The notes under the pieces were generated by a model. It saw only the letters and a list, made by a program, of their open reading frames with translations, was not told the origin of the DNA and searched no databases. Both the position numbers and the translations under genes were made by a program. Positions 10,331 to 63,429 of a stretch of DNA of 64,000 nt are shown here, one piece after another. Position 1 is the stretch's first letter, and every line of letters starts with the position of its first letter. Source of the DNA: Eledone cirrhosa (Eukaryota); contig OZ024743.1 of the NCBI GenBank assembly GCA_964016885.1, forward strand, positions 225,122,001 to 225,186,000, read 5' to 3'.

Positions 10331-10612
10331 ATCATCATCATCATCATCATTTTACGTCCACTTTTCCCTGCTTGCAAGGGTGGGACAGGAACTGATTCTG
10401 GCTTGATTTCTACAGCTGGATGCCCTTCCTAACACCAACCTCATTTACAGTGAGTGCTGGGTGCTTTTTTGCTGTGGCACCTCAACGACCACTTTACAGT
10501 GGAATGATAGGGACTCCAGTCCCTATCATCTCATTTCTACAGCTGAGTAAACTGAAGCAATGTGAAATAAAGTGTCTTGCTCAAGGAAACAACACATCAC
10601 CCGGTCTGAGAA
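10331..10612 (-). mobile_element. CORE-type SINE with RTE tail (family A), head truncated
   Basis: Reverse complement of 19452-19732; (CAT)n tail. Confidence 0.9.
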
Positions 10613-14181
<3,569 letters not shown>

Positions 14182-15945
14182 ATCATCATCATCATCATCA
14201 TCACCGTTTTACGTCCGTTCTTCCACGCTAGCATGGGTTAGACGGGTTGTCCTGTTGTGGGCAGTGTCTGGTCGGCTGACCATGCCTTGCTCATACAGGA
14301 ACTGATCTGGCTTGATTTCTACAGCTGGATGCCCTTCCTAACACCAACCTCATTTACAGTGAGTGCTGGGTGCTTTTTCGTGGCGCCTACACGTCCACTT
14401 TACAGTGTGGGCTGGGTGCTTTTTTGCCGTGGCACCTCCACGACCACCTTGCGGTGGGGGGGGTGGGGGGGGGGGCATATTGTTTATATGCTTCAGCATG
14501 TACCCATGGGAGGTCGGGTACCCTGTATTACTGCGTGACGCCAGAAGTCACGGTCGTGTGTCATTGACTTTGAGAGGTGTAGTTGGGTAAGGTCGGCTTT
14601 TATCACCTCATCCCAAGTCATCTTGGGTCTCCCCACTCCGCGGTTTCCATCAACTTCTAGTGCTCTGCACCTTTTTATGCAGCTGTCATCCTTCATACGC
14701 ATCACATGTCCATACCAGCGTAACCGCCTCTCCTGCACGCAGCATTTGATTCCTCTTATGCTCAGTCTCTCTCTCAATTCATTTATGCTTTGTCGTTCAC
14801 GTATATTACTGTTACACATCCATCGGAGCATGCAGGCTTCGTTTCTCTCTAATCTACGTAAGTCTTCCACCTTCAGCGCCCAGGTCTCACTACCATGCAA
14901 CATCGCTGTTCGGATACACGCATCATACAGTCTGCCTTTCATTCTGAGGGAGAAGCCTTTTGCAGCTAGCAGTGGTAGTAGTTCCCTAAACTTCTTCCAT
15001 CCCGTTCTTACCCTAGTTATTGTACTTTCTGAGCACCCACCTCCGTTGCTAATTCGGTCACCTAGGTAGCAGAAGCTGTCTACTGTTTCTACAGGGCCCT
15101 CCCAGAGATTGGTGGTACTTGTTTCCTGTGGCTGTTTGCTTGCTGTTTCAGCACAGCTGCTGCATGTGAATCCTACATTCTTAATTAAGCTTCCTGAGAT
15201 CCCGCTACATCTCTTGTGTACCCATTGTTTGCATTTGGGGCAAAGAATGGAGTTCCTACCTACACCTTTCCTACATACTGAGCAAGGCCATTTCCCTGAG
15301 GGGATCTGGGTTCTGTTTTCTCGTCTACTTATAAGGACCTTAGTCTTTGTCATGTTGACTTTGAGGCCCTTTCTCTCTAGTCCCTGCTTCCAGGTTTGGA
15401 ATTTATTCTCTAGTTCTACCATAGATTCAGCTATGAGTGCGAGGTCATCAGCATACAGGAGTTCCCATGGGCATCCGGTCTTAAACTCCTCCGTTATTGC
15501 CTGCAGGACTATGATGAACAGGAGAGGGCTAAGAACAGAGCCCTGGTGGACCCCAACCTGTACGCTAAATTCCTCGCTATACTCATTGCCAATCCTAACT
15601 TTGCTGACTGCTCCCCTATACATGGCTTGTACCGCTTTCACAAGCCATTCATCTACTCCTAGTTTTCTAAGAGCCCACCAGATTACTGCACGTGGAACTC
15701 TGTCAAAGGCTTTCTCAAGGTCGACAAATGCCAAGTAGAGTGGCTTACTTTTAGCTAGGTACTTTTCCTGTAATTGCCTCACAAGGAAGAGCGCATCAGT
15801 GGTGCCTTTCCCTGGTACAAACCCAAATTGCATCTCGTCTATATTCACCCGGTCCCTAATCAGCTGTGCTATAACTCTTTCTGTTACTTTCATGACCTGG
15901 TCCATCACTTTATACCTCTATAGTTTCCTCTATCTAGTGCATCGC
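14182..15945 (-). mobile_element. RTE LINE, 5'-truncated (subfamily 1)
   Basis: RT ORF, 3' UTR and (GAT)n tail; both ends embedded in TA arrays. Confidence 0.93.
14493..15908 (-). CDS. RTE reverse transcriptase, open 471-aa C-terminal part with PHD-like finger
   Basis: [37 protein letters not shown] motifs; 5' part lost. Confidence 0.85.
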
Positions 15946-16348: not shown

Positions 16349-19135
16349 AGCCAGGTAGATTATATCCTTACCAGAAGACGTGACAAAGTGACTGTTGTAA
16401 ACACTAAATCCCTCCCCCATGAAGAATGCTTCTCCCAACATAGACTGATAATTAGCGACCTAATAGTCAGGACGAGACGTACTAGGCAACAGAAGAAGAC
16501 TACCCTCAGGAGAAAAATATGGAAGCTAAAGGACCCCACAGCCAAAAATAAATTCCAAAGCATATTACTTGATGCTTTCGACAGTAAGGAAGAGCAAATA
16601 GAGTCGTACAAGGTAGAGGAACAGTGGGAATTCTGAAAGCAAACCTGCTGACGGCGACAGACGAAGTCTGTGGCTGGAGCAGGCCTGTAGGCAGGAGGAG
16701 AGTAACATGGTGGTGGAACAGTAAGCTGGAGGGGTCAATTAAGGCCAAAAAGCAGGCTTGGAAAGTATGGCGGGATGGGGGAAGCAGAGAAGACTATCAA
16801 GTGGCCAGGAGGGAAGCTAGGAGACAAGTGTACTTCGCAAGAAGGGAAGTAGAGGAAAGAAAGTTCAAGCATGTTCTACAACGCGAGGACCAAAAACGTG
16901 AGGTGTTCAGGATTGCTAGGCATTGTGTCAAGGAAAACAGTGATATTGTCGGGGAGAAGTGTGTACTTAACAATGACGGCGTACTTGCCATCACCGACGC
17001 CGATAAGAAGGTAGCTTGGAAGTGTCACTATGAAAGGCTACTCAATGAGGAGAATAAATGGGAGAAAGACAGTCTCCCCCACATCGACCCAATAGAGGGA
17101 CCAGCTGTGTTAGTTGAGGGTAGTAAAATAAGTAAGGCAATCAAAGATATGAAGACCGGCAAGGCGGCTGGGCCTTCGGAAATAGTTGCCGAGATGCTGA
17201 AGGCATCTGGTACGGTGGGACACACCATGGTCACCCGGATAGTCAACCAAGTCATACAGAATGGGATTGTTCCGAAGGACTGGCGTAGCAGCATTATCGT
17301 TAACTGTTATAAGGGTAAAGGAGATGCCCTAGATAGGAGTAACTATAGAGGCATTAAATTAATCGACCAGGTCATGAAGGTCGCGGAAAAAGTAATAGCG
17401 CAACTAATCAGAGAGCAAATTGATCTAGATGAAATGCAGTTCGGGTTTGTGTCAGGAAAAAGTACCACAGACGCTCTTTTCATTGTACGACAACTACAGG
17501 AGAAGTACCTAGCTAAAAGTAAACCCCTATACTTAGCTTTCGTCGACTTGGAGAAGGCCTTCGACAGAGTCCCCCGTTCCATTATCTGGTGGGCTCTTAG
17601 AAAACTAGGTGTCGATGAATGGCTTGTGAGAGCTATACAAGCCATGTATAAAGAAACAGTCAGCAAGGTTAGAATTAACAACGAATATAGTGAAGAGTTT
17701 AGTGTAAAAGTTGGTGTTCATCAAAGCTCTGTTCTTAGCCCCCTACTATTTATTATTGCCCTCCAGGCTATAACAGTGGAGTTCAAGACCGGCTGCCCAT
17801 GGGAACTCCTATACGCAGATGATCTAACGCTCATAGCTGAATCAATGGCCGAGCTAGAGAAGAAATTCCAAACATGGAAGCACGGGCTAGAATCAAAAGG
17901 CCTTAAAATTGACCTGGCTAAGACTAAAGTTCTAGTTTGTAAGAAAGAAAATAAGGCGGCGGTCCCCTCCGGGAAGTGGCCATGCGCAGAGTGTAGGAAA
18001 GGCGTAGGTAGAAATTCCATTTTGTGTCCCAAAAGCAAAGTTTGGGATCACAGGTAAGCTAACTAAGAACATAGATTTTACATGTGGCCGGTGTTCTGGG
18101 GCAATAAGTAGCAGCAAGTGCCCACAAAATACTAGCTTTTTTCAACTGCGCAGAGGGTTCTATAGAAATAGTGGACAGCTTCCGTTACCTGGGTGACAAA
18201 ATCAGAAGTGGGGGAGGGTGCTCTGAAAGTACAGTAGCTAGAGTCAGAACTGGGTGGAAAAAGTTCAGAGAGCTTATACCACTATTAGCCGCTAAAGGGT
18301 TCTCCCTAAAAATGAAAGGCAGGTTGTACGATGCCTGCATACGAACAGCAATATTGCATGGCAGTGAGACCTGGGCATTGTGTGCAGAGGATATACGCAG
18401 ACTAGAGAGAAACGAAGCTTGCATGCTCCGCTGGATGTGTAATAGTAATATACGTGAACGACAAAGCATAAACGAACTAAGGAAAAAATTAGAAATAAGA
18501 GGGATCAGATGTTGTTTACTAGAGAGAAGGCTACGTTGGTATGGTCACGTGATGCGCATGAAGGACGATATCTGTATAACAAAGTGCAGGGCAATAAAGA
18601 TAGACGGTAGCCACGGAATAGGCAGACCCAGAAAAACCTGGGACGAGCTGACAAACTCCGACCTCACACACTTACACCTCACCAAGACAATGTCACTGGA
18701 CCGAGACCTTTGGCGGTACTCAGTAATAGAGAAGACCCGCCTTACCTAAATACAAAGTAAAACCTACTACAGTCAGTAGGCATCTCTAACAAAATACACC
18801 CCCGTCCCACCACCCCCACCCCATCCACACCGCCCCCTTCTATGTAAAGTTTTGTTGGTGCCACACCATCCAGGCCGAAACAAATGAGATCGTGTAGGTG
18901 TCACGACAAAAAAACACACAGTCCACGTTGTAATGTGGCCGTGTAGGCAACACGGTAAAAACCTCCCAGACCCACAGTGTAAATGTGGTTGGTGTTAGGA
19001 AGGGCATCCAACTGTAGAAAACCTGCCAGACAGTCCGATGCGAGCAAGACAATCACTCTTGCCTCAAGTGGGAATACCCCCGTCCAAACCCATGCAAGCG
19101 TGGAACACGGACGTTAAACGTTGATGATGATGATG

Positions 19136-19170: not shown

Positions 19171-19394
19171 CATATATACATATATATACATATATATATA
19201 TACATATATATACATAAACATATATACATATATATACATATATATACATAAACATATATATACATATAATCATCATCATCATATACATATATATATACAT
19301 ATAAACATATATATACATATACATATATATACATATACATATATATACATATATATATATATATACATATATATACATATACATATATATATAT

Positions 19395-19732
19395 GGAGGC
19401 ACATGGCTTAGTGGTTAGAGCATTGGCCTTGCAATCGAAAGGTTGTGAGTTCAATTCTCAGATCGGGTGATGTGTTGTTTCCTTGAGCAAGACACTTTAT
19501 TTCACATTGCTCCAGTTTACTCAGCTGTAGAAATGAGATGATAGAGACTGGGGTCCAAATCATTCCACTGCAAGGTGGTCGTGGAGGTGCCACGGCAAAA
19601 AAGCACCCAGCACTCACTGTAAATGAGGTTGGTGTGAGGAAGGGCATCCAGCTGTAGAAATCAAGCCAGAATCAGTTCCCGTCCCACCCTTGCAAGCAGG
19701 GAAAAGTGGACGTAAAATGAAATGATGATGAT
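19395..19732 (+). mobile_element. CORE-type tRNA SINE with RTE tail (family A), full length
   Basis: A box TGGCTTAGTGG, B box GAGTTCAATTC, CORE-like CCTTGAGCAAGACACTT...CCAGTTTACTCAGCTGT, RTE-like GGAAGGGCATCCAGCTGTAGAAA, (ATG)n tail. Confidence 0.9.
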
Positions 19733-19782
19733 ACAAATATATACATGTACATATATATACATATATATATATATATACATAG

Positions 19783-19813
<31 letters not shown>

Positions 19814-19971
19814 CATATACATACATAAACACATATATATATATACATATATATATATATACATATACATACATAAACATATATATACATAAACATATAT
19901 ATACATAAACATATATATACATAAACATATATATACATAAACATATATATACATATACATATATATAAATA

Positions 19972-20751
19972 TATATGAAAAAGTTTGTACTCATAAGTGG
20001 CCTTCCAACCGTCGTAGGCATTTCGTCGCATTAAAGGCCATATACCTCAGGTTGGTGCGAGCAACGGCTAAAAAAGTCGTTGGGACACGTAAATAAGGGG
20101 GACGCTAGGGTAAACAAACAAAATGGTTTAAGCAACAGAAAGTGATGAAGAAGAAACAAGCCCCAGGTTTCTATGAATATAAATTCGGTGGAATCGTGAA
20201 CGAGAGAATAAAGACCATCAAAGCTGGTTGAAATGTGAGCAAGGAAGGAATTTCGCACAGGTCTAACGGGGGGAAGAAGGGGTCTGGTCTGCGAATTCGG
20301 TAAACATAAGTTCTGTGAAGTCGCAGACGAGAGAGAGAGAAAAAAAATTCATACCGGCTTGGCCAAGTGCCCGCGAGAAAAGGATTACGGACAGGTCAAA
20401 CGGGAAGAAAGGGGAGGAAGAGAGGTAGTGACAGAGAGTGAGTGAGTGAAAGTTGAGGAAGTGGCTAACAGAGAGAGAGAGACTGCTAGAAAGGGTAAAG
20501 ACACAAAGAACGAAACAGACTGGTGGCAGCGGAGGAAAAAATATATGTGTAAATATGATAATAATGGAGCTGCGGCGCTGCAAATGGGTTACATATGAAA
20601 AACTTTGTCCTCATCAGTGGCCTTCCAACTGTCGTAGGCATTTCGTCGCATTACAGGCGAAATGCCTACGACGGTTGGAAGGCCACTGATGAGGACAAAC
20701 TTTTTCATATGTAACCCATTTGCAGCGCCGCAGCTCCATTATTATCATATT

Positions 20752-20755
<4 letters not shown>
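19972..20755 (-). mobile_element. Unclassified ~620-bp non-coding unit, 1.1 copies plus inverted end
   Basis: Direct repeat 19972-20033 / 20592-20653; fold-back 20548-20645 / 20658-20755; homologous to 45709-46612. Confidence 0.75.
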
Positions 20756-21636
<881 letters not shown>

Positions 21637-21801
21637 ATAAAATATTAAACAAATAATGAATAAACAATGAAACAGTTCCTTATATTAAACAAAAAAAGTT
21701 CATTATTTAAATAATGAACTTTAAATAATGAACTTTTTTTGTTTTTTGTTTAATATAAGGAACTGTTTCATTGTTTATTCATTATTTGTTTAATATTTTA
21801 T
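21637..21801. repeat. AT-rich inverted repeat (~70-bp arms)
   Basis: ATAAAATATTAAACAAATAATGAATAAACAATGAAACAGTTCC... mirrored by ...GGAACTGTTTCATTGTTTATTCATTATTTGTTTAATATTTTAT. Confidence 0.85.
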
Positions 21802-22214: not shown

Positions 22215-22227
22215 CATATATATATAG

Positions 22228-25200
22228 TTTAGCGAGGTTTTTTATATGAAATCGTGTGTTGAAACAGATATTGTTATACTTGGGGAGGGTCATATTTGCG
22301 TAATATTGCCAGAATTAATAACAGAACACACTCACTGTTTGGTTGGTTTAACAACAATAACGGTGAAGTAAACAACAATACATCTAGCAATCATAACAAT
22401 AATAATAATGCTAATGATAGAAACAACAACAATAGCAACACACACAACTATGACGATAGATATAATGACAACCCCTTAGAGAAACTATTTTTCAACCCAG
22501 CTGACAAAACATATAAGATGGGTAATATCTATCCTACGAGGTTACCCTTTAATAAAAGAATTTGCATACCACAGCAAATAGATGACGAGACGGAGGCACA
22601 GTTCACCATAGCTAGAAATAAGATTAGACAAGTAGTAGAGAGGTATACTAAGAGACAGAGCAGACCAGAGGCCCAACAACTTGGGAGAAAACCTGTAGAA
22701 GGCTTGGTTAGCCTCAAGCAGCGCACAAGGGATGGTGAGGTAGTGTGTCTACCCACAGATAAGTCTGGTAGGATGTCAATAGATAGCATGCCGAACTACA
22801 TCGAGGCTATGCAACCCCACATCACCAACACGAGCGAAGTTGCACAACAAACACACGATGGGAGAGAAAAAATCCTCAACGCTCACATGATGATGTGGAC
22901 TGACATCCTAAAGCCAAGCAGACGCACTGCCAACAACTTCCAGGCGTCTAACAATGGCATACCACCCTTGTATGGGCTCCGCAAAGACCACAAGACAGTC
23001 GACGACCAGACAACAGGACCACCAACAAGACCCGTATGCGGAGCTAATATAGCTAGCAACTACAGGATCTCCTACTTCCTCTCAATGGTTATACGCCCCA
23101 TAATCAAGATGTCCCCAGATGTATGTGAAAGTACAGAGGACCTCCTCAGCGGAATCAGTGAGTGCAACAAAAACAGGAGCCTATCCAACTGCATAATAGG
23201 CAGCATGGATGTGGTGTCACTGTACCCATCCATTAACATTGATTTTGCTGTGAAAAGATGTGTGGTGATGATCATTGAGAGTGAGGTGGAGTTCTGCGAC
23301 GTCGACACAGACGAACTGGGCCTCCTACTTAGACTTACCTACGACACTGACTACCTAGACAGCCATGACCTTAGATGTTTCTGCCCTAGTAGACCTATAA
23401 GAGGTAGACCCCCCACCATAACCTCAATGGCAAAAAAGACTCCCATAGGAAGGTAGATTGGGTGGACCAAAGCTATACGGACCCCCAAAAACGCTGATCA
23501 GGTAAGAAAAATGGTCGCACATGCAATAGGGGCTAGTATCAAAACTACCCTAAAGGGCCACATATTTAAGTTCAATGAGAAAATCTACACCCAAAATGAG
23601 GGAGCAGCCATTGGCGTCAGCATAGCTGGTGATGTTGCCAACCTTTTCATGGTATGGTGGGAAAGGAGACTTAAAGATCTCCTTAATGAAAGCTCCATAG
23701 ACCTCATCATGTACTCTCGTTATGTAGACGATATCAATATAGTTATAAGAACACCCCCACTAGAGAGCACTAACAAGTTTGACTTAGAACGTAGCACGAT
23801 GGAAAGCATCCAGCAGATAGCTAATTCCATACACCAGAGTATAACTGTAACTATCGACTTCCCTTCCAAACACCCTAACAATAGACTACCTGTATTAGAC
23901 ACAGAACTCTGGATTAACACTATAGACGAGAGAGCCCAAATTCTCCACTCACACTATGCTAAACCCATGGCCTCCAAATACCTGGTACTCAAAAACTCAG
24001 CAATGTCCAGTAGTGCTAAGTTTAATATTCTGATCGCAGATTTGGTACGAGTGATGAAGAATGTGTCCAGCATGTGCAACCCAACAGAAATGGAAAGACA
24101 CATCCAACACTTCATCAACCGCATGCAGTTCTCTGGCTACAACCAAAGAGACAGAGTCAGAGTATACGAAGGAGCCATGGAAAAGTATAAGACCCTCATA
24201 GAACTGGACATGAAAGGAATTTGCCCACTATACAGGAGCAAATCATGGAATAGCTTAGATAGGGCTAGACATAAGATAGGGAAGGCCACATCATGGTACA
24301 ACAACCAGAGATATCAAAGTGTCATGTTTGTGGACGCCACCCCTGGAGGGAAATTAGCTAACCAGTGTAGAAAGTCCCTGAGAAAGACCCACTTAAAAAT
24401 AAAGGTGGTAGAAAAGCCAGGAACCACCATAAAAACCCTGATCAGCAAAACCTACCCTTTTAAGAAAACCCATTGTACCAATAGGAAATGTATCATATGT
24501 AAGGTGAACCCCCGGATAAACTGCAAAACTAGAAACGTAGTCTATAGCATAAGATGTACAGAGGGTACTTGCAGAAACATGACAACAACATACATAGGTG
24601 AGACAGCTCGTAGCATAGGTGAAAGGATAGACCAACACTGGGGGGAACTAAAAGGACGAAAAAACGGGTCAGTACTATACGAACATGCTAGACAACAACA
24701 TGACGGTAACATAGACAACATAGAAATTAGAATAATATCTAAACATAGGAATGACCCAACAGATAGGCAAATCAGAGAGGCCAGTGAAATAGAAATTAGA
24801 AGACCAAAGCTAAACAGAAAGAATGAGTGGAACAACAACAACACCCAAAGAAACAACACTGACCTAAGAGAAGTATAAATAAGTAAATAAATAAAATAAA
24901 ATAAAATGAAATAAGATAAATAAATACATACACAAGCACAACAACAACAAGCACATAAACACACACTAGTCACCCAGCAGACACAACACTATACACACTA
25001 GTCACACACAAAACACTATACACACACGCAAACGCATGCGCAAAGAAGACAAAATAAAATAAACAAACAAGCAAATAAATAAATAAATATATAGACAGAC
25101 TGAATAAAAAATGGCGTAGACATACAACACAACAGGAGGAAAAAAATATAACACCACTGACGATGTTGCAGATGTGCAACGAAAGATTTATGTAAATTAT

Positions 25201-25401
25201 GTAAAATATATATATGTGTTTGTATCTATATTGTATCTGTATTATTTTTGAGCGTCGGTCAGTCAATGGCAACATTGAGGACCGAGTAAGTTAGATCGCA
25301 GATATAAAAGACAGCGAGAAGCGAAAACCAACCAAGCAGTGAGTGTGTTCTGTTATTAATTCTGGCAATATTACGCAAATATGACCCTCCCCAAGTATAA
25401 C
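22228..25401 (+). mobile_element. Penelope-like retroelement 1 with inverted termini
   Basis: RT + C-terminal GIY-YIG; 77-bp inverted repeats 22273-22349 / 25325-25401; flanked by TA arrays. Confidence 0.92.
22350..24878 (+). pseudogene. PLE RT-GIY-YIG polyprotein, one in-frame TAG (23454-23456), 5' end replaced by inversion
   Basis: PTDKSG, LYGLRKDHK, RPV, MDVVSLYPSI, YVDD, LPVLD, VVYSIRC...YIGET, ERIDQH, LNRKNEW; ORFs 22296-23456 and 23511-24878 are in the same frame. Confidence 0.88.
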
Positions 25402-25402
25402 C

Positions 25403-26736: not shown

Positions 26737-29700
26737 ATCATCATCATCAACGTTTAACGTCCGTGTTCCACGCTTGCATGGGTTTGGACGGGGGTAGTCC
26801 CACTTGAGGCAAGAGTGATTGTCTTGCTCGCATAGGACTGTCTGGCAGGTTTTCTACAGTTGGATGCCCTTCCTAACACCAACCACATTTACAGTGTGGG
26901 TCTGGGAGGTTTTTACCGTGTTGCCTACACGGCCACATTACAGCGTGGACTGTGTGTTTTTTTGTCGTGACACCTACACGATCTCATTTGTTTCGGCCTG
27001 GATGGCGCGGCACCAACAAAACTTTACATAGAACGGGGTGGTGTGGATGGGGTGGGGGTGGTGGCGGGACGGGGTGTATTCTGTTAGAGATGCCTACTGG
27101 CTGGAGTAGGTTTTACTATATATTTAGGGAAGGCGGGTCTTCTCTGTTACTGAGTACCGCCAAAGGTCTCGGTCCAGTGACATTGTCTTGGAGAGGTGTA
27201 AGTGTGTGATGTCGGAGTTTATCAGCTCGTCCCAGGTTTTTCTAGGTCTGCCTATTCCGTGACTACCGTCTATCTTTATTGCCCTGCACTTTGTTATACA
27301 GCTATCGACTTTCATGCGCATCACGTGTCCATACCAACGTAGCCTTCTCTCGAGTAAACAACATCTGATCCCTCTTATCTCTAATTTTTTCCTTAGTTCG
27401 TTTATGCTTTGCCGTTCACGTATATTACTGTTACACATCCAGCGGAGCATGCAAGCTTCGTTCCTCTCTAGTCTGCGTATATCCTCTGCACACAATGCCC
27501 AGGTCTCACTGCCATGCAGCATTGCTGTTCGTATGCAGGCATCGTACAACCTGCCTTTCATTTTTAGTGAGAACTCTTTAGCAGCTAATAGTGGTATAAG
27601 CTCTCTGAACTTTTTCCAACCAGTTCTGACTCTAGCTACAGTACTTCCAGAGCACCCTCCCCCACTGCTGATTTTATCGCCCAGGTAACGGAAGCTGTCC
27701 ACTATTTCTATAGAACCCTCTGCGCAATTGAAAGAGCTAGTAGTTTGTGGGCACTTGCTGCTACTTATTGCACCAGAGCACCGGCCACATGTAAAATCTA
27801 TGTTCTTAGTTAGCTTACCTGTGATCCCACTACATCTTTTATGCACCCATACTTTGCATTTAGGACATAAAATGGAGTTTCTACCTACGCCTTTCCTACA
27901 CACCGAGCACGACCATTTCCCAGAAGGGACCGCCGCCTTGTTTTCTTTCCTACAAACTAGTACTTTGGTCTTAGCCAGGTTAATTTTAAGTCCTTTTGAC
28001 TCTAGGCCGTGCTTCCATGTTTGGAATTTCTTCTCTAGCTCGGCCATTGATTCCGCTATGAGTGTCAGGTCGTCTGCGTATAGGAGTTCCCATGAGCAGC
28101 CTGTCTTGAACTCCTCTGTTATAGCCTGAAGGGCAATAATAAATAGTAGTGGGCTGAGAACAGAGCTCTGATGGACGCCAACTTTTACGCTAAACTCTTC
28201 ACTATATTCGTTGTTAATTCTAACCTTGCTGACTGTTTCTTTATACATGGCTTGTATAGCCCTCACAAGCCATTCGTCAACGCCTAGTTTTCTAAGAGCC
28301 CACCAGATAATGGAGCGGGGGACTCTGTCGAAGGCTTTCTCCAAGTCGACAAAAGCTAAGTAGAGGGGTTTACCTTTAGCTAGGTACTTCTCCTGTAGTT
28401 GTCGTACTATGAAAAGAGCGTCTGTGGTACTTTTGCCTGACACAAACCCGAACTGCATTTCATGTAGGTCAATTCTCTCTCTGATTAGTTGCGCTATTAC
28501 TTTTTCCGTGACCTTCATGACCTGGTCGATTAATTTAATGCCTCTATAGTTACTCCTATCTAGGGCGTCTCCTTTACCCTTATAACAGTTAACGATGATG
28601 CTGCTATGCCAGTCCTTCGGAACAACCCCATTCTGTACGACTTGGTTAAACTATGCGGGTGACCATGGTGTGTCCCACCGTGCCAGATGCCTTCAGCATC
28701 TCAGCAACTATTTCCGAAGGCCCAGCCGCCTTACCCGTCTTCATATCCTTGATTGCCTTACTTATTATACTCCCCTCGACTAACACTGCTGGTCCCTCTA
28801 TTGGGTCGATATGGGGGAGACTGCCTTTCTCCCAATTATTCTCCTCATTTAGTAGCCTTTCATAGTGACACTTCCAAGCTACCTTCTTATCAGCGTCGGT
28901 GATGGCAAGTGAGCCATCGTCGTTTAGTACACACTTCTCCCCGACAATATCACGGTTTTCCTTGACGCATTGCCTAGCAATCCTGAACACCTCACGTTTT
29001 TGGTCATCGCGTTGTAGAAAATACTTGAACTTTCTTTCCTCAGCTTCCCTTCTTGCTAAGTACACTTGTCTCCTAGCTTCCCTCCTGGCCACTTGATAGT
29101 CCTCTCTACTTCCCCCATCCCGCCATACTTTCCAAGCCTGCTTTTTGGCCTTAATTGACCCCTCCACCTTACTGTTCCACCACCATGTTACTCTCCTCCT
29201 GCCTACAGGCCTGCTCCAGCCACAGACTTCGTCTGTCGCCAACAGCAGGTTTGCTTTCAGAAATTCCCACTCTCCCTCTATATTGTCCGACTCTAAATGT
29301 TCTTCCTTACTGTCGAAAGCATCAAGTAATATGCTTTGAAATTTATTCCTGGCTGTGGGGTCCTTTAGCTTCCATATTTTCCTCCTGAGGATAGTCCTCT
29401 TCTGTTGTCGAGTACGTCTCGTCCTGACTATGAGGTCGCTAATTATCAGTCTATGTTGGGAGGTGCATTCTTCATGGGGAGGGATTTAGTGTTTACAACA
29501 GACACTCTGTCACGTCTTCTGGTAAGGATATAATCTACCTGGCTTGTGTGTCCCCGGATCTATAGGTGATCAGGTGATTGTCACGTTTTTGAAGTTAGTG
29601 TTACAGATAGTTAGGTTATTTGCGTCACAGAATTCCAGGATTCTGGAGCCTTCCTCATTTCTAGTACCAAACCCATAGCCTCCATGGATTTCGTCGTAGC

Positions 29701-30795
29701 CGTCACAATGTTGTCCAACGTGACCATTAGGTCGCCTGCGATAATTATATAGTCACTGTCGATATTTGGGAGGTAGTTAGCATCAGTGTCTCATAGAATC
29801 TGTCTTTTATAGTTCCGGGCAGTCCGGATTGGGGTGCGTACGCAGATATTACTGTCACCGTAGTTCTATTGAGGACAAGTCTTATTTTAATTATTCTGTC
29901 GTTCACTCTATTTACGTCTATTATCTTATCTGCTACATAATTCCTACTCCACCCAGCCCATCGTCGTTTCCCACCCAGAAAAGCTTATAACATCGTTTTT
30001 TACCCTCAATGAACCTAGCAGACCCACCCCTCCACCTGGTCTCTTGAATACAACAAACATCGACCTCCTTACGTTCAAGCATTTCTACAACCTCGTTAGC
30101 GCGACCCTTTAGGGTGCCTACATTTATGGTACCAACTCTGAAGTTTTGGATTGCGTTTGGAGGGTGGGGGGCGGGGGGCGATGGGGTTATGTTAGCCGTC
30201 CGCGGTCGAAACAATGAGGAGTGCTCGCATTCTCGTCCAAGAGGTGAATTTGTCTTTATCTTTGGCATTGTCGCTGAGCGTCCAGATTTTTCTCTCTCTC
30301 ACCTCCACTCTCCAGGATTCCGCAGTCCATCCATCCATCATATATCGAAAGGCAACCAGGCAAGCGATAGTATAGGCCTCTGGTTTCTGATTGGTCCGCG
30401 TAATAATACTGGTGATGCGTGGGGGCTCTGTTTTATGATTGGTCCACGTAATAGCAATGGTGGTGCGTGGGGGTGGGAGGGAGGGGTGTTGGGTAGCTAG
30501 CAAGAAGGTAATGATTGAATGGGGTCCTTGCATTTAACAAGCGATTAACAAAAATACAAAATTTGTTCTGTTAAATACGCCCAAAAACTTTCGTATTTAA
30601 CAATTAATAGAAACAGAAAATGTAGTTTGTTTTAGCGATAGATTGGCTATTTGGACTTGATACGAAATATGGATTGTTTTGAAAATACGCTAGAATTAAG
30701 ATTTGTGGAGGGAGAGAAATGAAATCCGTACATTACGTTTACATGCATATCGTGGGTAGACAGCAAGCAATGAAATTTGGCGAAGTGAATTCCTA
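26737..30795 (-). mobile_element. Near full-length RTE LINE (subfamily 2); 5' boundary uncertain
   Basis: 5' UTR, APE start (GTINVGTL...CIQETRW, ORF 29933-30268), RT pieces 28646-29242 and 27124-28518, 3' UTR, (GAT)n tail. Confidence 0.92.
27124..30268 (-). pseudogene. RTE APE-RT polyprotein, several frameshifts
   Basis: Complete domain set from initiator Met to stop, broken by small indels. Confidence 0.88.
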
Positions 30796-35248: not shown

Positions 35249-37590
<2,342 letters not shown>

Positions 37591-37640
37591 AAAATAAAGT
37601 TAAATAAAAGTCAAATGATTAAAATTTAGCTTCGTTTATT

Positions 37641-37695
37641 ACTGCTATATATATTTCAGTGACAGCCATCTTTGGCTGTGACCTCTTCAGGCAGT
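37641..37695 (-). ncRNA. Minimal type I hammerhead ribozyme (sense to PLE 2)
   Basis: ACTGC-CTGAAGA-stem II-GAAA-TATATA-TA-GCAGT on the minus strand. Confidence 0.85.
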
Positions 37696-40600
37696 TTAAT
37701 TAGTATGGTATAGACAAGTACATATGTTGTTTAGGTGTATGATATTGTCAATACTCTGATATGCCAGTTCCTTGTTGGGTTGTTAATTCACTGGGGAACT
37801 GGAGTCATATGAATTCTAACAAACGAATTTCATGTCACAGGTCCCCTTCTCCTCTCATTGGTCAGTTATTAGAACATTCCTCATTCTAAGTGTTGTTATT
37901 GTTGGAGTTAGCTTAAAAATTGGTAAAATGGTAGAAGGGACAATGTGTTAAAGGAACAAAATAACAAAATAACGAAAAAAGTGTCAAACTTCCCATTGTT
38001 CAGTTCTGAGAGCATTCCTCAGTCAGAAGTCTATAGAATTCTTTCTGGGGTGAGGCTCCCTGTAGTGTTTTTGCCTGCTATTGTTCAGTACATTTGACCT
38101 CCACCATTATTTTGGTACTGTTGTTGTTGTAGTGGTCAGCTTATATCTTGCTGCTGCTAACAATATATCTTGCTGCTGCTAACAATTTAGAAGTATCCAG
38201 TTTGTGTTTTTTCTTCATCTCTCCGGTCACCATCGTAGTGGTGGTGGTGGTGGTGGTGGTGGTGTGGGAGGGGGGGGGGGGCTTCTTTCATGTATATGAA
38301 GAAATATAAGGCAATAAATGAAGAAAACAGAAAATAAATAAATAATATAATAAAGTAATTAATATAATTTGTGTAATTTGAAAATAAATAAATAAATAGA
38401 GAATAAAGAATAAAGAGTAAATGAGAGATTGGTGAAAAAGTAATGATAATGTATATGGAGAGGTGAGAAATAATGTAGGATAAAGTGTGTGTGTGCTATA
38501 ACCAATCTCAAGGTCAGAATATGTTGGATAGATTGGTATGAGACAAGATGTTAAGATGAGATATTCAATGTGTTTGTGTTATAATCTATCTCAACTTAAA
38601 ATAAATATAAGGTGATACAGTGAAGAGGGCAGAAAACAAAAAACAAATTAATAAAGAGAAATCAAGATTTAAGATTGGAACTTGAAAGTCAGAAATCTGG
38701 TAAATTAAAAGTGTTTGTGTTATAGATGTTGGCCAAATTATTATGGCTGTGTCCGATTCTATCTCTAGGCTATCATGGTGTCTGCTCTGCCTGGGTTGTT
38801 CCCTGTGGCTTGAGGGGAGTTCACAACCTAGGGTTTTGTTATTGCCCATATAGCTTGAGGGAGGTCTGGCCGAGAGGTGTTTTCATGTTCTGTAGAAGTC
38901 CCTATAGCTTGAGGGGAGTTCACATCTTCTTGTGTTGCTACTGTCCATATATCTTGAGAAAGGTCCCGGCTCTAAGGTGTCTGCATGTCATGAAGAAGTC
39001 GGTTCTGAGGTTTATCAGGCCGCTTCCACCTCTTAGTATCTCGAGGGTCTCGTTCAGGCATAGTTTGCATATGCAAGATCCCCTTTATCGGGTGGTACTT
39101 TCCTGATTATGTACCAGGCCAGAGAGTATGGGGTCCTGTCCAGCTTAAGCTTCCAGATCAGGTCGGAGAGAGCTGTGCTTTTCCTTTTGGCCTCCTTCTT
39201 GAATGAATGGCGATGGTTGTACCAGCGGTCCTTAAAGCTCGTTGATGTGGCTCCTATGTAGAGGTGTTCGGAGTTGGGGTTTTAACCCTACAACCGTACA
39301 CTAGGTTCTTCTTGAGACATTCATTACCAAGGGGGCATGATTCGGGGTTTCTGCAGTTGCAGAGGGTGGTCGGCCTCTGCGTGCCTATATTAGGGTTCTC
39401 ATTATGTGTTACATGTGGGTCTTCCCCCATGCTCGGTGGGGGGTCCTTGGGTCTGTTTGTGTTTCTTGGGTGGGCTCTGGGTCCCCCCTTCCCTCCTTTC
39501 ACATGGTTCTGCTGAGTGTTTGTATTGCCATCTTCTGGTTGTGTGTGGTTTTTAAGCCTACTTCTGTTGATGCTAGCTATGTGTTGGGCCAAATTTCTCG
39601 TGGTGGAATACGAAAGCTTCACAGTGTGTCTGTTGAAGATCCTGTGGTATCTGTGGTCCCTCGGGAAGCATTTGTCAAGTGCTCCAAAGAATATTCGGGC
39701 CAAGCTTTTCTTTAGGGCCGCTGAGTAGGGTGGGTTGTACCACGTGATTTGTCGGTGTCTTCTCCTATATGTGTGGGTTGGGGGCTTCGTGATTTGTTGG
39801 AGATTTGTTGGGTTGCTGGTGGTTTCCGCACTGTTGCTTCCCTTTTGGGCTCTATACTTTTTGTTATCTTCGCGGCCTGGATTTGTGGGGTGGTTGTTGT
39901 CCGCCCCGGGAGATCCATCGTGGGGTGGTCGCCCGTTTCCTCCCCCCCCCCCCCACGTGTCCTGCGGTTGGGGTTGTCCGTCCTGGGGTAGTTAGCGTCA
40001 CGCCTGAGACTGCTACTCATATTGTGGTCCATCTCGTGGTCAAGCGCACTAGTCCCCACCGCCCGTGTGGTGGTGTCTGGTACATGTTGCCTATTTGATT
40101 CTGCTCTGCCTGTATTGTTAGGGTTCGCCCTCCCCCCTCTGGCAACGCGGTTGTGGGTGTCTGTTGGGCTATCCACCTCCCGGCTTTTCGGACTATATGT
40201 TATATTTTATCCATGTGCCGCCTTCTTTAGAGCTGCGTTGTAATATTCCGCGTGGTTGTTGAATATTTCCTTACTTGCTGACAGGCTGGAGATGGAGATC
40301 CTGTCCGAGACACTCTTCACCACTGCCTTAGTTATGGATCTAGGGTGGTTTGATTTGGCGTTAACATATACGAGTTTATCGTTGGGCTTGTGGTAGGGGT
40401 AGTATTGCTCGGTGTTCAGGTTTAGGGTGGTGTCTAGGAAGTTAACTACCTTCCTATTTGGGTCTATTTCTATGCTGAGCCCCTGGTTCTTAAAGAAATG
40501 GCGAATACGCCTCCTCATACCCTCCAACATATTGGTTGCTGTGGTCATGTACTGTGAATAGAGCATCGTCACGATATAATCCGCCGCCCAGGCAGGGGAT

Positions 40601-40805
40601 TTCATCTTTTATCTGCTTCAGCAGGTAGAGCCCAACCAGGTCCGTTACCTGCGCTGAGTCGCTGGAGCCCATCGTGATGTCAAAGTTATTTGGCCAATCA
40701 CTCCTGGTCCAAAGGTCTCCATCGAAGTGAACTGGGCATATCAGAGTATTGACAATATCATACACCTAAACAACATATGTACTTGTCTCTACCATACTAA
40801 TTCAA

Positions 40806-40860
40806 ACTGCCTGAAGAGGTCACAGCCAAAGATGGCTGTCACTGAAATATATATAGCAGT
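40806..40860 (+). ncRNA. Minimal type I hammerhead ribozyme (inverted copy)
   Basis: ACTGC CTGAAGA GGTCACAGCCA AAGA TGGCTGTCACT GAAA TATATA TA GCAGT. Confidence 0.85.
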
Positions 40861-41059
40861 AATAAACGAAGCTAAATTTTAATCATTTGACTTTTATTTA
40901 ACTTTATTTTACACTACTCCGGAGTAACCAAACCAACCTGCGCACTTCGTCGAGTGCTCCAGCCTGCATACTGAGGTGTTGGTATACAACCAACATAAAC
41001 TCAAAATCTATATATATACATATATATATATATACATATATATGTAGGAGGTGAGTTTT

Positions 41060-41808: not shown

Positions 41809-42184
41809 ATGGCTTAGTGGTTAGAGCATTGGACTTGCAATCGAAAGGTTGTGAGTTCAATTCTCAGACTGGGTGATGTGTTGTTTCCTTGAGCAAGACA
41901 CTTTATTTCACATTGCTCCAGTTTACTCAGCTGTAGAAATGAGATGATAAGGACTGGGGTCCCTATCATTCCACTACAAAGTGGTCGTGGAGGTGCCACG
42001 GCAAAAAAGCACCCAGCCCACACTGTAAAGTGGACGTGTAGGTGCCACGGGAAAAAAGCACCCAGCACTCACTGTAAATGAGGTTGGTGTTAGGAAGGGC
42101 ATCCAGCTGTAGAAATCAAGCCAGAATCAGTTCCCGTCCCACCCTTGCAAGCAGGGAAAAGGGGACGTAAAATGAAATGATGAT
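41809..42184 (+). mobile_element. CORE-type SINE with RTE tail (family A), extra internal tail repeat
   Basis: Near identical to 19395-19732 with the GGTGCCACGG...GCACCCAGC unit present twice. Confidence 0.9.
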
Positions 42185-42347: not shown

Positions 42348-42436
42348 TATATATGTAAATATATATATATAAATATAAATATATAAATATAAATATATAT
42401 ATATATAAATATAAATATCATCATCAAATATAAATA

Positions 42437-45400
42437 TCATCATCATCATCAGCGTTTAACGTCCGTGTTCCACGCTTGAGGCAAGAGTGATTGTCTTGCT
42501 CCCATAGGACTATCTGGCAGGTTTTCTACAGTTCGATGCCCTTCCTAACACCAACCACATTTACAGTGTGGGTCTGGGAGGTTTTTACTGTGTTGCCTAC
42601 ACGGTCACATTACAGCGTGGACTGTGTCTTTTTTTGTCGTGACACCTACACAATCTCATTTGTTTCAGCCTGGATGGTGTGGCACCAACATAACTTTACA
42701 TAGAAGGGGGCGGTGTGGATGGGGTGGGGGTGGTGGGATGGGGGTGTATTTTGTTAGAGATGCCTACTGACTGTAGTAGGTTTTACTATGTATTTAGGTA
42801 AGGCGGGTCTTCTCTATTACTGAGTACCGCCAAAGGTCTCGGTCCAGTGACATTGTCTTGGAGAGGTGTAAGTGTGTGAGGTTGGAGTTTATCAGCTCGT
42901 CCCATGTTTTTCTAGGTCTGCCTATTCCGTGGCTACCGTCTATCTTTATTGCCCTGCACTTTGTTATACAGCTATCGACTTTCATGAGCATCACGTGTCC
43001 ATACCAACGTAGCCTTCTCTCGAGTAAACAACATCTGATCCCTCTTATTTCTAATTTTTTCCTTAGTTCGTTTATGCTTTGCCGTTCACGTATATTACTA
43101 TTACACATCCAGCGGAGCATGCAATCTTCGTTCCTCTCTAGTCTGCGTATATCCTCTGCACACAATGCTGTTCATATGCAGGCATCATACAACCTGCCTT
43201 TCATTTTTAGGGAGAACCCTTTAGCGGCTAATAGTGGTATAAGCTCTCTGAACTTTTTCCATCCAGTTCTGACACTAGCTACTGTACTTTCAGAGCACCC
43301 TCCCCCACTGCTGATTTTGTCACCCAGGTAACAGAAGCTGTCCACTATTTCTATAGAGCCCTCTGCACAGTTGAAAGAGCTAGAATTTTGTGGGCACTTG
43401 CTGCTACTTATTGCACCAGAGCACCAGCCACATGTGAAATCTATGTTCTTAGTTAGCTTACCTGTGATCCCACTACATCTTTTATGCACCCATACTTTGC
43501 ATTTCTGACACAAAATGGAGTTTCTACCTACGCCTTTCCTACACACTGAGCATGGCCACTTCTCGGAAGGGACCGCCACCTTATTTTCTTTGCTACAAAC
43601 TAGAACTTTGGTCTTAGCCAGGTTAATTTTAAGGCCTTTTGCTTCTAGGCCATGCTTCCATGTTTGGAATTTCTTCTCTAGCTCGGCCATTGATTCAGCT
43701 ATGAGTGTTAGGTCGTCTGCGTATAGGAGTTCCCATGGGCAGCCGGTCTTGAACTCCTCTGTTATAGCCTGAAGGGCAATAATAAATAGTAGGGGGCTGA
43801 GAACAGAGCCCTGATGGATGCCAACTTTTACGCTAAACTCTTCACTATATTCGTTGTTAATTCTAACCTTGCTGACTGTTTCTTTATACATGGCTTGTAT
43901 AGCTCTCACAAGCCATTCGTCAACACCTAGTTTTCTAAGAGCCCACCAGATAATGGAACGGGGGACTCTGTCGAAGGCTTTCTCCAAGTCGACAAAAGCT
44001 AAGTATAGGGGTTTACTTTTAGCTAGGTACTTCTGTAGTTGTCGCACAATGAAAAGAGCGTCTGTGGTACTTTTGCCTGACACAAACCCGAACTGCATTT
44101 CATCTAGATCAATTCTCTCTCTGATTAGTTGCGCTATTACTTTTTCCGTGTCCTTCATGACCTGGTCAATTAATTTAATGCCTCTATAGTTACTCCTATC
44201 TAGGGCATCTCCTTTACCCTTATAACAGTTAACGATGATGCTGCTCCGACAGTCCTTCGGAACAACCCCATTCTGTACGACTTGGTTAACTATCCGGGTG
44301 ACCATGGTGTGTCCCACCGTGCCAGATGCTTTCAGCATCTCAGCAACTATTTCCGAAGGCCCAGCTGCCTTACCCGTCTTCATATCCTTGATTGCCTTAC
44401 TTATTATACTACCCTCGACTAACACTGCTGGTCCCTCTATTGGGTCGATGTGGGGGAGACTGTCTTTCTCCCATTTATTCTCCTCATTTAGTAGCCTTTC
44501 ATAGTGACACTTCCAAGCTACCTTCTTATCAGCGTCGGTGATGGCAAGTACGCCGTCATCATTAAGTACACACTTCTCCCCGACAATATCACGGTTTTCC
44601 TTGACACATTGCCTAGCAATCCTGAACACCTCACGTTTTTGGTCCTCGCGTTGTAGAACATGCTTGAACTTTCTTTCCTCTGCTTCCCTTCTTGCGAAGT
44701 ACACTTGTCTCCTAGCTTCCCTCCTCGCCACTTGATAGTCTTCTCTACTTCCCCCATCCCGCCATACTTTCCAAGCCTGCTTTTTGGCCTTAATTGACTC
44801 CTCCACCTTACTGTTCCACCACCATGTTACTCTCCTCTTGCCTACAGGCCTGCTCCAGCGACAGACTTTGTCTGCAGCCATCAGCAGGTTTGCTTTCAGG
44901 AATTCCCACTGTTCCTCTATATTGTACGACTCTAATTACTCTTCCTTACTGTCGAAAGCATCAAGTAGTATGTTTTTAATTTTATTTCTGGCTGTGGGGT
45001 CCTTTAGCTTCCATATTTTTCTCCTGAGGATAGTCCTCTTCTGTTGTCTAGTACGTCTCGTCCTGACTATTAAGTCGCTAATTATCAGTCTATGTTGGGA
45101 GGTGCATTCTTCATGGGGGAGGGATTTAGTGTTTAAAACAGACACTATCACGTCTTCTGGTAAGGATATAATCTACCTGGCTTGTGTGTTCCCCAGATCT
45201 ATAGGTGATCAGGTGATTGTCACGTTTTTTGAAGTTAGTGTTACAGATAGTTAGGTTATTTGCGTCACAGAATTCCAGGATTCTGGAGCCTTCCTCATTT
45301 CTAGTATCAAACCCATAGCCTCCATGGATTTCGTCATAGCCGTCACAATATTGTCCAACGTGACCATTTAGGTCGCCTGCAATAATTATATAGTCACTGT

Positions 45401-45633
45401 CGGTTATTTGGGAGGTAGTGAGCATCAGTGTCTCATAGAATCTGTCTTTTATAGTTCCGGGCAGTCCGGATTGGGGTGCGTACGCAGATATTACTGTCAC
45501 CGTAGTTCTATTGAGGACAAGTCTTATTTTAATTATTCTGTCGTTCACTCTATTTACGTCTATTATCTTATCTGCTACCATAATTCCTACTCCACCCAGC
45601 CCATCGTCATTTCCCACCCAGAAAAGCTTATAG
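42437..45633 (-). mobile_element. RTE LINE, slightly 5'-truncated (subfamily 2)
   Basis: APE (SAYAPQ, AGDLNGHVG, QVDYIL), 569-aa RT ORF 43172-44881, C-terminus 42794-43165, tail. Confidence 0.93.
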
Positions 45634-45708
45634 CATATATATAAATATATATATATATAAATATATATATATAAATAAATATAAATATATATAAATATAT
45701 ATATATAT

Positions 45709-46612
45709 ATTCTCTCATTCACGATTCCACCGAATTTATATTCATAGAAATCTGGGACTTGTTTCCTTCTTCATCACTTTCTGCTGCTTAAACCATTTTG
45801 CTTGTTTACCCTAGCGTCCCCTTTATTTACGTGTCATAATGACTTTTTTTTTAGCCATTGCTCGCACCAACCTGAGGTATATGGCCTTTAATGCGACGAA
45901 ATGCCTACGACAGTTGGATGGGCACTGATGAGGACAAAGTTTTTCATATGTAACCCATTTGCAGCCCCGCAGCTCCATTATTATCATATTTACACATATT
46001 TTTTCCTCCGCTGCCACCAGTCTGTTTTGTTCTTTGTGTCTTTACCCTTTCTAGCAGTCACTCTCTCTCTGTTAGCCTCTTCCTCACCTTTCACTCACTC
46101 ATTCTCTGTCACTACCTCTCCTCCTCCCCTTTCTTCCCGTTTGACCTGTCCGTAATCCTTTTCTCGCGGGCACTTGGCCAAGCCGGTACGAATTTTTTTT
46201 CTCTCTCTCTCGTCTGCAACTTCACAGAACTTATGTTTACCGAATTCGCAGACCAGACCCCTTCTTCCTCCCGTTAGACCTGTGCGAAATTCCTTCCTTG
46301 CTCACATTTCAACCAGGTTTGATGGTCTTTATTCTCTCGTTCACGATTCCACCAAATTTATATTCATAGAAACCTGGGGCTTGTTTCTTCTTCATCACTT
46401 TCTGCTGCGTAAACCATTTTGTTTGTTTACCCTAGCATCCCCTTTATTTACGTGTCCCAACGACTTTTTTTTTTTAGCAGTTGCTCGCACCAACCTGAGG
46501 TATTTGGCCTTTAATGCGACGAAATGCCTATGACGGTTGGATGGCCACTGATGAGGACAAACTTTTTCATATGTAACCCATTTGCAGCGCTGCAGCTCCA
46601 TTATTATCATAT
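45709..46612 (+). mobile_element. Unclassified ~622-bp non-coding unit, 1.45 tandem copies
   Basis: ATTCTCTC..TCACGATTCCACC at 45709 and 46331; homologous to 19972-20755. Confidence 0.78.
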
Positions 46613-46630
46613 ATAAATATATATATATAT

Positions 46631-47781
46631 AAGGCCTTGTTCGAAGCCATGTGTTGGCAGTGTTTTTAGCTTCTTCAACACCACTAAAACGGGTTCCTTT
46701 TAGCATTCCTTTGAGTTTTGGAAAGAGGAAAAAGTCTGATGGGGCTAAATCTGGACTATAAGGCGGGTGAGGAAGCACTTCCCATCGAAATTCTCGAAGA
46801 ACTTCTTTTGCAACCCACGCAGAATGCGCTGGTGCATTGTCATGGTGAAACAAGATCCCACCATGAAGTTTCCTTTTTCGTTTCTTAACTAATGCCTCTT
46901 TCAGCTTCCTTAAAACATTTGCATAGTAAGCTCCTGTCACAGTTCTTTGACCTTCAAGATAATCTATTAGTATCACACCATCTGAATCCCAGAAAATGGT
47001 GGCCATCACTTTTTGATCCGACTTTTGAGATTTGAACTTGATTGGCCCCGATGATCCACGTGAAAGCCACTGTTTTGAATGCTGTTTGGATTCAGGATCA
47101 TACTGGTAGATCCAGGTTTCATCTCCGGTGATGATTCTGGTCAGGAAATGCTCTTCATCAACTTCAATTTTGTTTAATATCGCCAAAGACAGATCACTTC
47201 GAAGAATCAACTGATAAAGGCGCAACGCTTTTGGGACCCATCGCGCTGAAAGCTTGCCTAGTCCCAAATTATCGTGCAGAATTGAATTTGCCGAACCATA
47301 TGAAATGTCTAGGGACTTAGCTAACTGATTAACTGTTATTCTTCGATCTTCTTCAATTAAAGTCTGAGCAGCCTCAACGTTTTGGTCATTTTTTTATGTT
47401 CCTAGTCTTCCACTGTGATGGACGTCTTCAAGGTCGTCTCTCCCTTGTTTGAATCGCTGAATCCACTTATAGACAGCAGTTTTCTTTGGAGCAGTAGTAC
47501 TGTAAACTTTAACTAAAACCTCCATAATCTGTGTCCCTTTCCATTTGAGTTTCACCAGAAACTTGATATTCGATCTTATCTCAAAATAGCTATTTTCCAT
47601 TGTTCCAAAAAGAGGTTTTTTAAAGAGTGTCAGTACTGTACAATAGTCCGCGCATAACTGACTGCAAGTGACTAATAGCAAGGTAAAGACCCAGTGACAA
47701 TGTTCTGACATGTTTAATATTGTTTTAATCTACTTTTTTCTTACAACGATAAAATTCCGCGAACTTTTTCACTCCACCTCG
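46631..47781 (-). mobile_element. Mariner (DD34D) transposon, 3'-truncated pseudogene
   Basis: TA-CGAGGTGGAGTGAAAAAGTTCGCGGAAT terminus; HTH region; WVPKAL, GDETW, HHDNAPAH, YSPDLAPSDF; ORF disrupted near 47394; other TIR absent. Confidence 0.9.
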
Positions 47782-52743: not shown

Positions 52744-52938
52744 ATATATAAAAGAGAAAACACAGGTAAGCATTAAGAGAAGGATTTTATCCAGGTATTT
52801 ACGACCGTTTCATTGGTAAGTGCAACCTTATATTGCTATACTGCAAATAACCGTACGTTGAAACCGTCCATGAAACTGGCTTTCTTAACCACGAACTGGA
52901 TCACAATAAGCAATTTTCTGCTTCCCTAACTATATATA

Positions 52939-60232: not shown

Positions 60233-60235
<3 letters not shown>

Positions 60236-60559
60236 GCACATGGCTTAGTGGTTAGAGCATTGGCCTTGCAATCGAAAGGTTGTGAGTTCAATTCTCAGAC
60301 CGTGTGATGTGTTGTTTCCTTGAGTAAGACACTTTATTTCACATTGTTCCAGTTTACTCAGCTGTAGAAATGAGACGATAGGACTGGGGTCCATATCATT
60401 CCACTGCAAAGTGGTTGTGGAGGTGCCACGGAAAAAAAGCACCCAGCACTCACTGTAAATGAGGTTGGTGTTAGGAAGGGCATCCAGCTGTAGAAATCAA
60501 GCCAGAATCAGTTCCCGTCCCTCCCTTGGAAGCAGGGAAAAGTGGACGTAAAATGATGA

Positions 60560-63228: not shown

Positions 63229-63429
63229 CATCATCATAGTATATATTAGGGACTTTGGGTAATATTGTCTATAAGGTTGACTAGAGGCAAGGCAGAGACT
63301 TGGGAGCCTATCATTTCTTTTTTTTTTTTTGTTTTGTAGTGAAGTGAAAGATTGAAGTGCCGAAGAGGGCCTAAATACCTGAAAGCCTAGGGACGCCGCC
63401 ACAGATTAATACAACCCTAAGAGTCAGCC

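Follow-up and report, generated by a model that had tools for sequence, protein, structure and literature searches.

The window analysed here is a stretch of 64,000 nucleotides of Eledone cirrhosa DNA. At positions 19973-20756 it contains a head-to-head insertion of a young, protein-free 621-bp element, lying between two (TA)n-type arrays (19731-19972 on the left and 20757-21657 on the right). Arm 1 (19973-20658, minus strand) comprises a complete 621-bp unit and about 65 bp of the one that follows, at 98.1% identity to the majority sequence of the family. Its truncated 5' end lies 3 nt downstream of a predicted ribozyme cleavage site, and it terminates without a tail at one of the two 3' ends used by the family (end 1). 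Arm 2 (20658-20756, plus strand) is an inverted, 5'-truncated copy that stops just past the other 3' end (end 2) and carries a tail (about 20709-20756). The RNA sense of the unit corresponds to the minus strand of the window. The hairpin at 20612-20691 is merely the inversion junction.

This structure agrees with an earlier note on the same DNA, which described a unit of about 620 bp, some 60 bp of a second one and an inverted copy of the end, all between TA arrays. The absence of a credible ORF, also claimed there, holds for the family: the longest stop-free frame in its majority sequence is 115 aa long and of low complexity. Likewise no tRNA head was found, as ARAGORN reports no tRNA gene in 19300-20800 and Rfam gives no match, although degenerate heads can escape both. 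The statement that the element has no tail needs correction, since the family possesses a PLE-type tail with two fixed 3' ends, and the inverted arm at the locus carries that tail.

A second insertion of the same family, a direct partial tandem with a tail (45708-46612, plus strand, 95.7% identity), contains two predicted ribozymes, one at about 45862-45932 with a single stem I mismatch and one at 46485-46555 with an AUU triplet. Directly beside it lies a mariner-type transposase fragment (Transposase_1, about 46625-47393, minus strand). The window further holds six RT-encoding LINE copies adjoining TA arrays (14185-15942, 16349-19133, 26741-29989, 42428-45632, 49899-52750 and 60686-63237), with RVT_1 and PHD finger domains, which we take to be RTE-like. 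A SINE-like repeat of about 330 bp is present in four copies (19396-19728, 10338-10610, 41812-42180 and 60233-60559), none of them called by ARAGORN.

A genome search with the unit returned 3,536 first-look candidates, 40 of which were scored. The 32 best full units show a mean identity of 99.0% to their own majority sequence, a value biased to the best matches, and the between-locus difference within the family is 2.3%, in a comparison that counts one locus twice (L019, L029). Arrays reach about four units, each of them non-coding and carrying one predicted hammerhead. The 621-bp family is young and non-coding. It also occurs, as fragmented contigs, in three sequencing runs of one sample. Mapping of the copy ends, proposed in the earlier note together with this search, gives scattered 5' ends and two fixed 3' ends. 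Nor do the copies flank an internal coding region as LTRs or pLTRs would: in the 72 clusters inspected the units adjoin one another directly, their 5' ends are scattered and their flanks unrelated.

The predicted ribozyme of the locus copy occupies 19990-20060 on the minus strand and is a permuted hammerhead, in the order X - I5' - S - G - I3' - C. Stem II would be completed by upstream strand X (20056-20060), which pairs with 20030-20026; the 5 pairs form in 98.3% of cells and include one double change. Strand X is followed by the 5' strand of a bridging helix I (20050-20055), whose partner is 20010-20005 (6 pairs, two doubly changed). Block S (20035-20046) provides a stem III strand, the cleavage triplet AUA and a stem I strand; by analogy with the ribozymes of PMC10085705, the cut is predicted between 20041 and 20040, after AUA. 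Block G (20017-20030) provides a stem II strand, GAA and the other stem III strand. The segment 20011-20016 contains a 3-nt bulge and the GA of a K-turn-like loop, with its partner GA at 20048-20047. Block C (19990-20003) provides a stem I strand, the core and G10.1. The earlier note saw only half a hammerhead core here, but all three blocks can be traced at 20060-19990 in S-G-C order. What is altered is the core of the locus copy itself, CUUAUGA instead of the CUGAUGA of the family. Because of this G5 to U change, the locus copy of the predicted ribozyme is likely inactive. The two other partial copies at the locus lack the cleavage-site block.

The intact motif is common in the family. The S-G-C pattern has 912 exact family matches, all with the core nucleotides CUGAnGA, GAAA and UH, against none in the reversed control. 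A scanner for all six block orders gave a single match in the unit, S-G-C with stems I and III crossing, and type I, II and III hammerhead readings of the unit were rejected on this ground. HDV-like and miRNA readings were considered as well and dropped. A covariance-model scan, also suggested in the earlier note, identified no Rfam family at gathering score, only hairpin or low-complexity matches below it, and the Rfam hammerhead models did not match the motif in three loci with intact copies. The best nested fold by RNAfold, whose model excludes pseudoknots, forms stem III and helix I and leaves out stem I.

Opening a type-SGC ribozyme between A9 and position 10.1 or 10.2, and placing the remainder of the unit in the gap, would give the predicted fold. 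Stem II would form one pair with the base 3' of the core and 4-6 bp with the upstream strand. Facing C11.1, the upstream strand of the 621-bp family has a C, and the core would therefore depend on just one G-C pair, which stacks on helix X. By consensus a K-turn lies between two helices and has a 3-nt bulge and then tandem G-A/A-G pairs. A loop of this kind, leading from stem III to helix I, is found in 247 of 274 descriptor matches, mostly from the 621-bp family, and is variant or absent in three LINE families.

The existence of the four helices (stem I, stem III, stem II with strand X, and bridging helix I) is supported by compensatory changes. In a 12-row alignment of related sequences, representing about two to three lineages, 96.2% of 288 cells pair, compared with at most 44.4% in slid controls, and 7 of the 24 pairs are doubly changed, a count reached by 15 of 500 shuffles. 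Substitution rates within the 621-bp family itself are similar in the motif (0.95%) and elsewhere (1.21%). A four-helix descriptor gave no match in reversed loci (227 sequences, 895 kb) and one in 20 Mb of random sequence, and it found four untargeted variants in locus flanks. Ten family representatives were then compared, picked by a descriptor that itself demands most of the pairs, the core and a cleavable triplet; within this selection 173 of 180 cells pair, and 17 of 18 columns show two to five pair types. The base after CUGAnGA is not G in three of the ten, and in two of these the upstream strand supplies a G for C11.1.

It seems to us very improbable indeed that chance arranged the motif or that misassembly created the inversion. 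Palindromes in TA arrays are hard to assemble, and among contigs from the three public runs none crosses the inversion, but these contigs are fragmented in repeats and so uninformative. Fold-back artefacts would give symmetric arms, whereas all 21 clean head-to-head pairs scored in the genome (see below) are asymmetric, with differing truncation points. As for chance, dinucleotide shuffles of the unit never produced stems this long in any block order (0/3000), a weak hammerhead-like triple appearing in 5/3000, and the reversed controls are empty.

The fold recurs outside the 621-bp family. A sister family of 512 bp, F3, with 3,247 candidates and about 64% overall identity to the 621-bp unit, came from a BLAST search that preceded knowledge of the structure, and was aligned without the descriptor. 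The two families differ at 16 of 71 motif positions. Counted by eye, 13 of these differences are in paired positions, where pairing is kept throughout, with five double changes; none of the 16 falls in the core. Another double change segregates inside F3. Each of 20 F3 loci lacks an inversion and uses a single 3' end (L157:1990-2755 and L159-L178); F3 may have a different mover.

Two older families, found by relaxed patterns, are preceded by sequence encoding a restriction-like endonuclease and an RT of the R2-superfamily type; we take these restriction-endonuclease-type LINEs to be HERO-like. In a protein-led sample of LINE 3' ends the motif is present in 4 of 12 regions, two of them without mismatch. 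In these two a U follows the core, and the upstream strand must therefore supply G10.1. The permuted hammerhead stands in the 3' UTR, soon past the end of the ORF, of R2-superfamily LINEs at L282, L284, L286, L291, L231 and a subset of L205-L222. The restriction-endonuclease-type LINE copies inspected are old and broken. Further pyrimidine-rich non-coding families exhibit the same fold with other stems (L127, L229, L227 near 2267 on the plus strand and L228 near 1261 on the minus strand). A GC-rich repeat family (L130, L215, L216) has GAAA upstream of CUGAnGA, and no cleavage block or stems were found in it.

Naiads have been said to lack canonical hammerheads, with eight "half cores" listed (PMC8557442). 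Read by eye, the 3' ends of Naiad_Obim and Naiad_Ovul in the supplement of that paper show the same four helices, and the full motif was confirmed by eye in none of 15 other Naiad 3' ends, which are given there as short excerpts. Several bivalve Naiad 3' ends in the supplement share a different conserved GC-rich motif that looks structured and contains no hammerhead by eye.

We classified 110 distinct insertion clusters of the 621-bp family as direct (71), clean head-to-head (21) or complex (18). The two fixed 3' ends lie +66 nt (end 1) and about +106 nt (end 2) from the predicted cleavage site, 40 nt apart, and some copies, the locus copy included, extend past the second to about +114. Direct clusters use end 2 in 45 cases, end 1 in 19 and other ends in 7. 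All 21 clean head-to-head pairs combine end 1 with end 2, compared with about 42% expected by a hand-worked calculation if the ends were independent. An earlier scoring gave 19 mixed pairs of 20, the remaining one (L108) having a partial tail and being classed later as complex. Flanks are TA-rich for 34 of 38 copies with end 1 and 33 of 49 with end 2. The 5' ends are scattered, and 5' truncation, partial tandems, inverted copies and a tail at one end only are all present.

These features are those described for PLEs. In AT-rich DNA a PLE protein cuts the two strands and extends each of them, starting reverse transcription at two internal sites on the RNA, the spacing of which equals the genomic PLE tail (PMC11167929), a tail of 30-40 bp found at one end only (PMC8557442). 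From this two-end insertion anatomy and the two descriptions we infer that PLEs mobilise the 621-bp family, a conclusion that is well supported. It sides with the earlier note, which proposed a non-autonomous, PLE-mobilised element from partial tandems and inversions in microsatellites; 5' truncation, (TA)n targets and paired 3' ends now point the same way, and no autonomous partner was found among the loci compared.

The genome is rich in PLEs, with 10,595 GIY-YIG candidates (150 scored). Among 30 GIY-YIG loci compared with the unit by BLAST, no autonomous PLE shares sequence with it, and a motif scan of 18 further GIY-YIG regions revealed no permuted motif in their own 3' ends. The Pfam GIY-YIG loci inspected contain PLE families with type I or degenerate hammerheads, their 3' ends resembling the unit weakly. 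A Naiad pattern search of the genome gave one decayed copy, similar to the published Octopus Naiads, and two unconvincing matches, without an RT match, by strict patterns that cannot show absence. The window itself contains a coding PLE (22226-25402, plus strand) with an RT, a GIY-YIG motif at the C-terminus, one in-frame stop and a truncated 5' end. Its left end is inverted and bears a tail of about 46 nt, and a hammerhead core in type I order lies near 25157-25185. Its sequence shows no similarity to the 621-bp unit; its tail/no-tail inverted arrangement is the same. A broken PLE at about 37590-40910 (minus strand), labelled Hydra-like from its resemblance to an alignment in the supplement of PMC8557442, carries two canonical type I hammerhead copies in inverted orientation. 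In the abundant PLE families of L181, L182 and a subset of L031-L058, type I-order hammerhead cores look degenerate by eye.

We consider it probable that the locus represents the head-to-head insertion of a young, protein-free tandem retroelement, likely copied by a PLE, whose units contain a predicted S-G-C hammerhead with stem II completed from upstream. A PLE protein would nick both strands of a (TA)n target, and reverse transcription of a read-through tandem RNA would start internally, at two priming sites located 66 and about 106 nt downstream of the predicted cut. Priming on a single strand would yield a 5'-truncated partial tandem; priming on both would yield a mirror pair, one arm with the 40-nt tail and the other without. 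In the RNA, the K-turn-like loop may bend helix I back and so join the far ends of stems I and II, and cleavage after AUA would cut tandem transcripts into unit-length RNAs. Such cleavage is probably slow or dependent on a helper protein; we propose this because most insertions were copied through uncut sites.

One question raised by this model is whether the ribozyme cleaves at all. The four-helix fold could be real and non-cleaving here, kept for RT recognition or folding, with the core as a relic. Direct insertions exceed one unit in 39 of 64 cases, so the RT must have run through uncut or religated sites; their 5' ends do not pile up at the predicted cut (2/64, with 1.75 expected), and the PLE hammerhead proved dispensable for insertion in vitro, the dominant PLE substrate being uncleaved RNA (PMC11167929). 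The 5' ends of head-to-head arms do fall at the cut in 5 of 42 cases (p 0.006), in a window chosen post hoc, and in none of 10 in a position-ordered sample. The conservation seen speaks against a relic core: core nucleotides and a cleavable triplet are kept in all ten representatives despite their differing stems (the descriptor requires both), and the descriptor-free alignment with F3 places no difference in the core. We regard a non-cleaving motif as fairly unlikely.

Cleavage might instead be accompanied by ligation, as in a classical retrozyme: a 621-nt monomer circle, produced by self-cleavage and ligation and copied by rolling reverse transcription, would yield partial tandems. The earlier note named a circular RNA stage as a possibility. 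Animal retrozymes do form circles (PMC7229834). One ribozyme per unit and arrays of about four units suit this model, and so does the folding energy of the circular monomer (-118.5 kcal/mol, compared with -99.7 +/- 5.6 for 30 shuffles), but the F3 circle lies just about 1.4 SD below its own shuffles. A diagnostic A/T site was compared as well. In 55 adjacent tandem pairs, duplicates removed, the units agree in 50 (A/A in 37, T/T in 13), again as expected of a circle, yet five pairs, on five different flanks, have A upstream and T downstream, and none has the reverse order. An obligate monomer circle is contradicted by these five pairs, because one circle cannot template differing adjacent units; they are consistent with descent from a tandem donor of mixed units that was read as linear or multimeric RNA. 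Circles may still arise as a by-product. The retrozyme scheme appears to us unlikely.

The mover could also be other than a PLE, the unit being a SINE-like passenger of a restriction-endonuclease-type LINE (R2-superfamily, HERO-like). The 3' UTRs of such LINEs in the genome contain the same predicted ribozyme, F3 has a single 3' end without inversion in 20 loci, and the sole Naiad found in the genome is decayed. The LINE copies are old and broken, though, compared with the young 621-bp family, and no common 3' tail sequence was seen. Moreover, head-to-head pairs of one tailed and one tailless arm, 21 of 21 here, are described for PLEs, and the coding PLE of the window is arranged alike. A LINE as mover is in our judgement quite improbable.

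We return to the preferred reading, a PLE-copied element with a predicted S-G-C hammerhead, and to its wider implications. On balance we lean towards a more general proposal: that an overlooked, active four-strand hammerhead, non-circularly permuted and with its catalytic block split, is widespread in animal retroelements, stem II being supplied from upstream and the fold closed by a K-turn; that it is the ribozyme which Naiads, at least the cephalopod ones, had seemed to lack; and that Naiad PLEs, the 3' UTRs of R2-superfamily LINEs and their non-coding parasites share it. If the motif cleaves, hammerhead topology reaches further than the six permutations set out in PMC10085705, and animal genomes contain a non-circular permutation at high copy number. 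It would also place a hammerhead in the 3' UTR of R2-superfamily LINEs, account for the "half cores" of some Naiads, and explain why Rfam and retrozyme surveys with type I descriptors have missed these families. The paired 3' ends furthermore provide genomic support, through a non-coding passenger, for PLE integration from two initiation sites.

Compared with known systems, the 621-bp element stands between several. In the literature searched, no report of the permuted fold in animals was found; subscription journals, Repbase and Dfam lay outside this search, so a name for the family may exist. The type-SGC hammerheads (HRIMA-1 and its variants, PMC10085705) share with the unit the S-G-C order, the full core, a stem I of about 5 bp, a short linker connecting stem I with stem II, and a helix that bridges these two stems on their other sides. 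In the 621-bp unit this bridging helix has 6 bp and a permuted connectivity. The stem II strand directly follows CUGAnGA in type-SGC, block C being assumed uninterruptible, whereas here it lies upstream of the motif; a K-turn-like loop between stem III and the bridging helix is a further difference of the unit. As published there, type-SGC hammerheads come from metatranscriptomes only, with none from the genome of a known organism, in contrast to at least 912 genomic copies here.

With the animal non-LTR retrozymes (PMC7229834; 10.64898/2026.07.22.740005) the element shares non-coding tandem units, one hammerhead in each and a proposed PLE dependence; its length of 621 bp lies inside the range of 51-972 bp given by Li, Clavereau and Pollet 2026 (10.64898/2026.07.22.740005). 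Retrozymes are defined by type I hammerheads and were surveyed with type I descriptors, whereas the 621-bp unit has no type I motif. Their circles have been shown for coral, mussel and axolotl (PMC7229834; 10.64898/2026.07.22.740005), and one of nine predicted retrozymes cleaved in vitro (10.64898/2026.07.22.740005).

The likeness to PLEs (PMC8557442, PMC11167929) extends to 5' truncation, partial tandems, an inverted 5'-truncated copy, a tail at one end, a (TA)n preference and two priming sites downstream of the ribozyme. The unit differs in having no ORF and, among the loci compared, no 3'-end homology to an autonomous family, and the coding PLEs inspected in the genome have ordinary or degenerate type I hammerheads, unlike the unit. 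The octopus Naiads come closest by eye, with the same four helices, K-turn-like loop and GAAA-to-CUGA spacing, Naiad_Ovul being annotated "HHR_half_core" in the supplement of PMC8557442; in contrast to the unit, they are coding, are said there to have been long inactive in cephalopods, and have other stem sequences. The 621-bp element thus resembles type-SGC ribozymes in its predicted fold while departing from one of their defining features, and is retrozyme-like without the type I ribozyme. It is probably a non-autonomous, retrozyme-like, PLE-dependent element with a hammerhead variant for which we found no earlier description.
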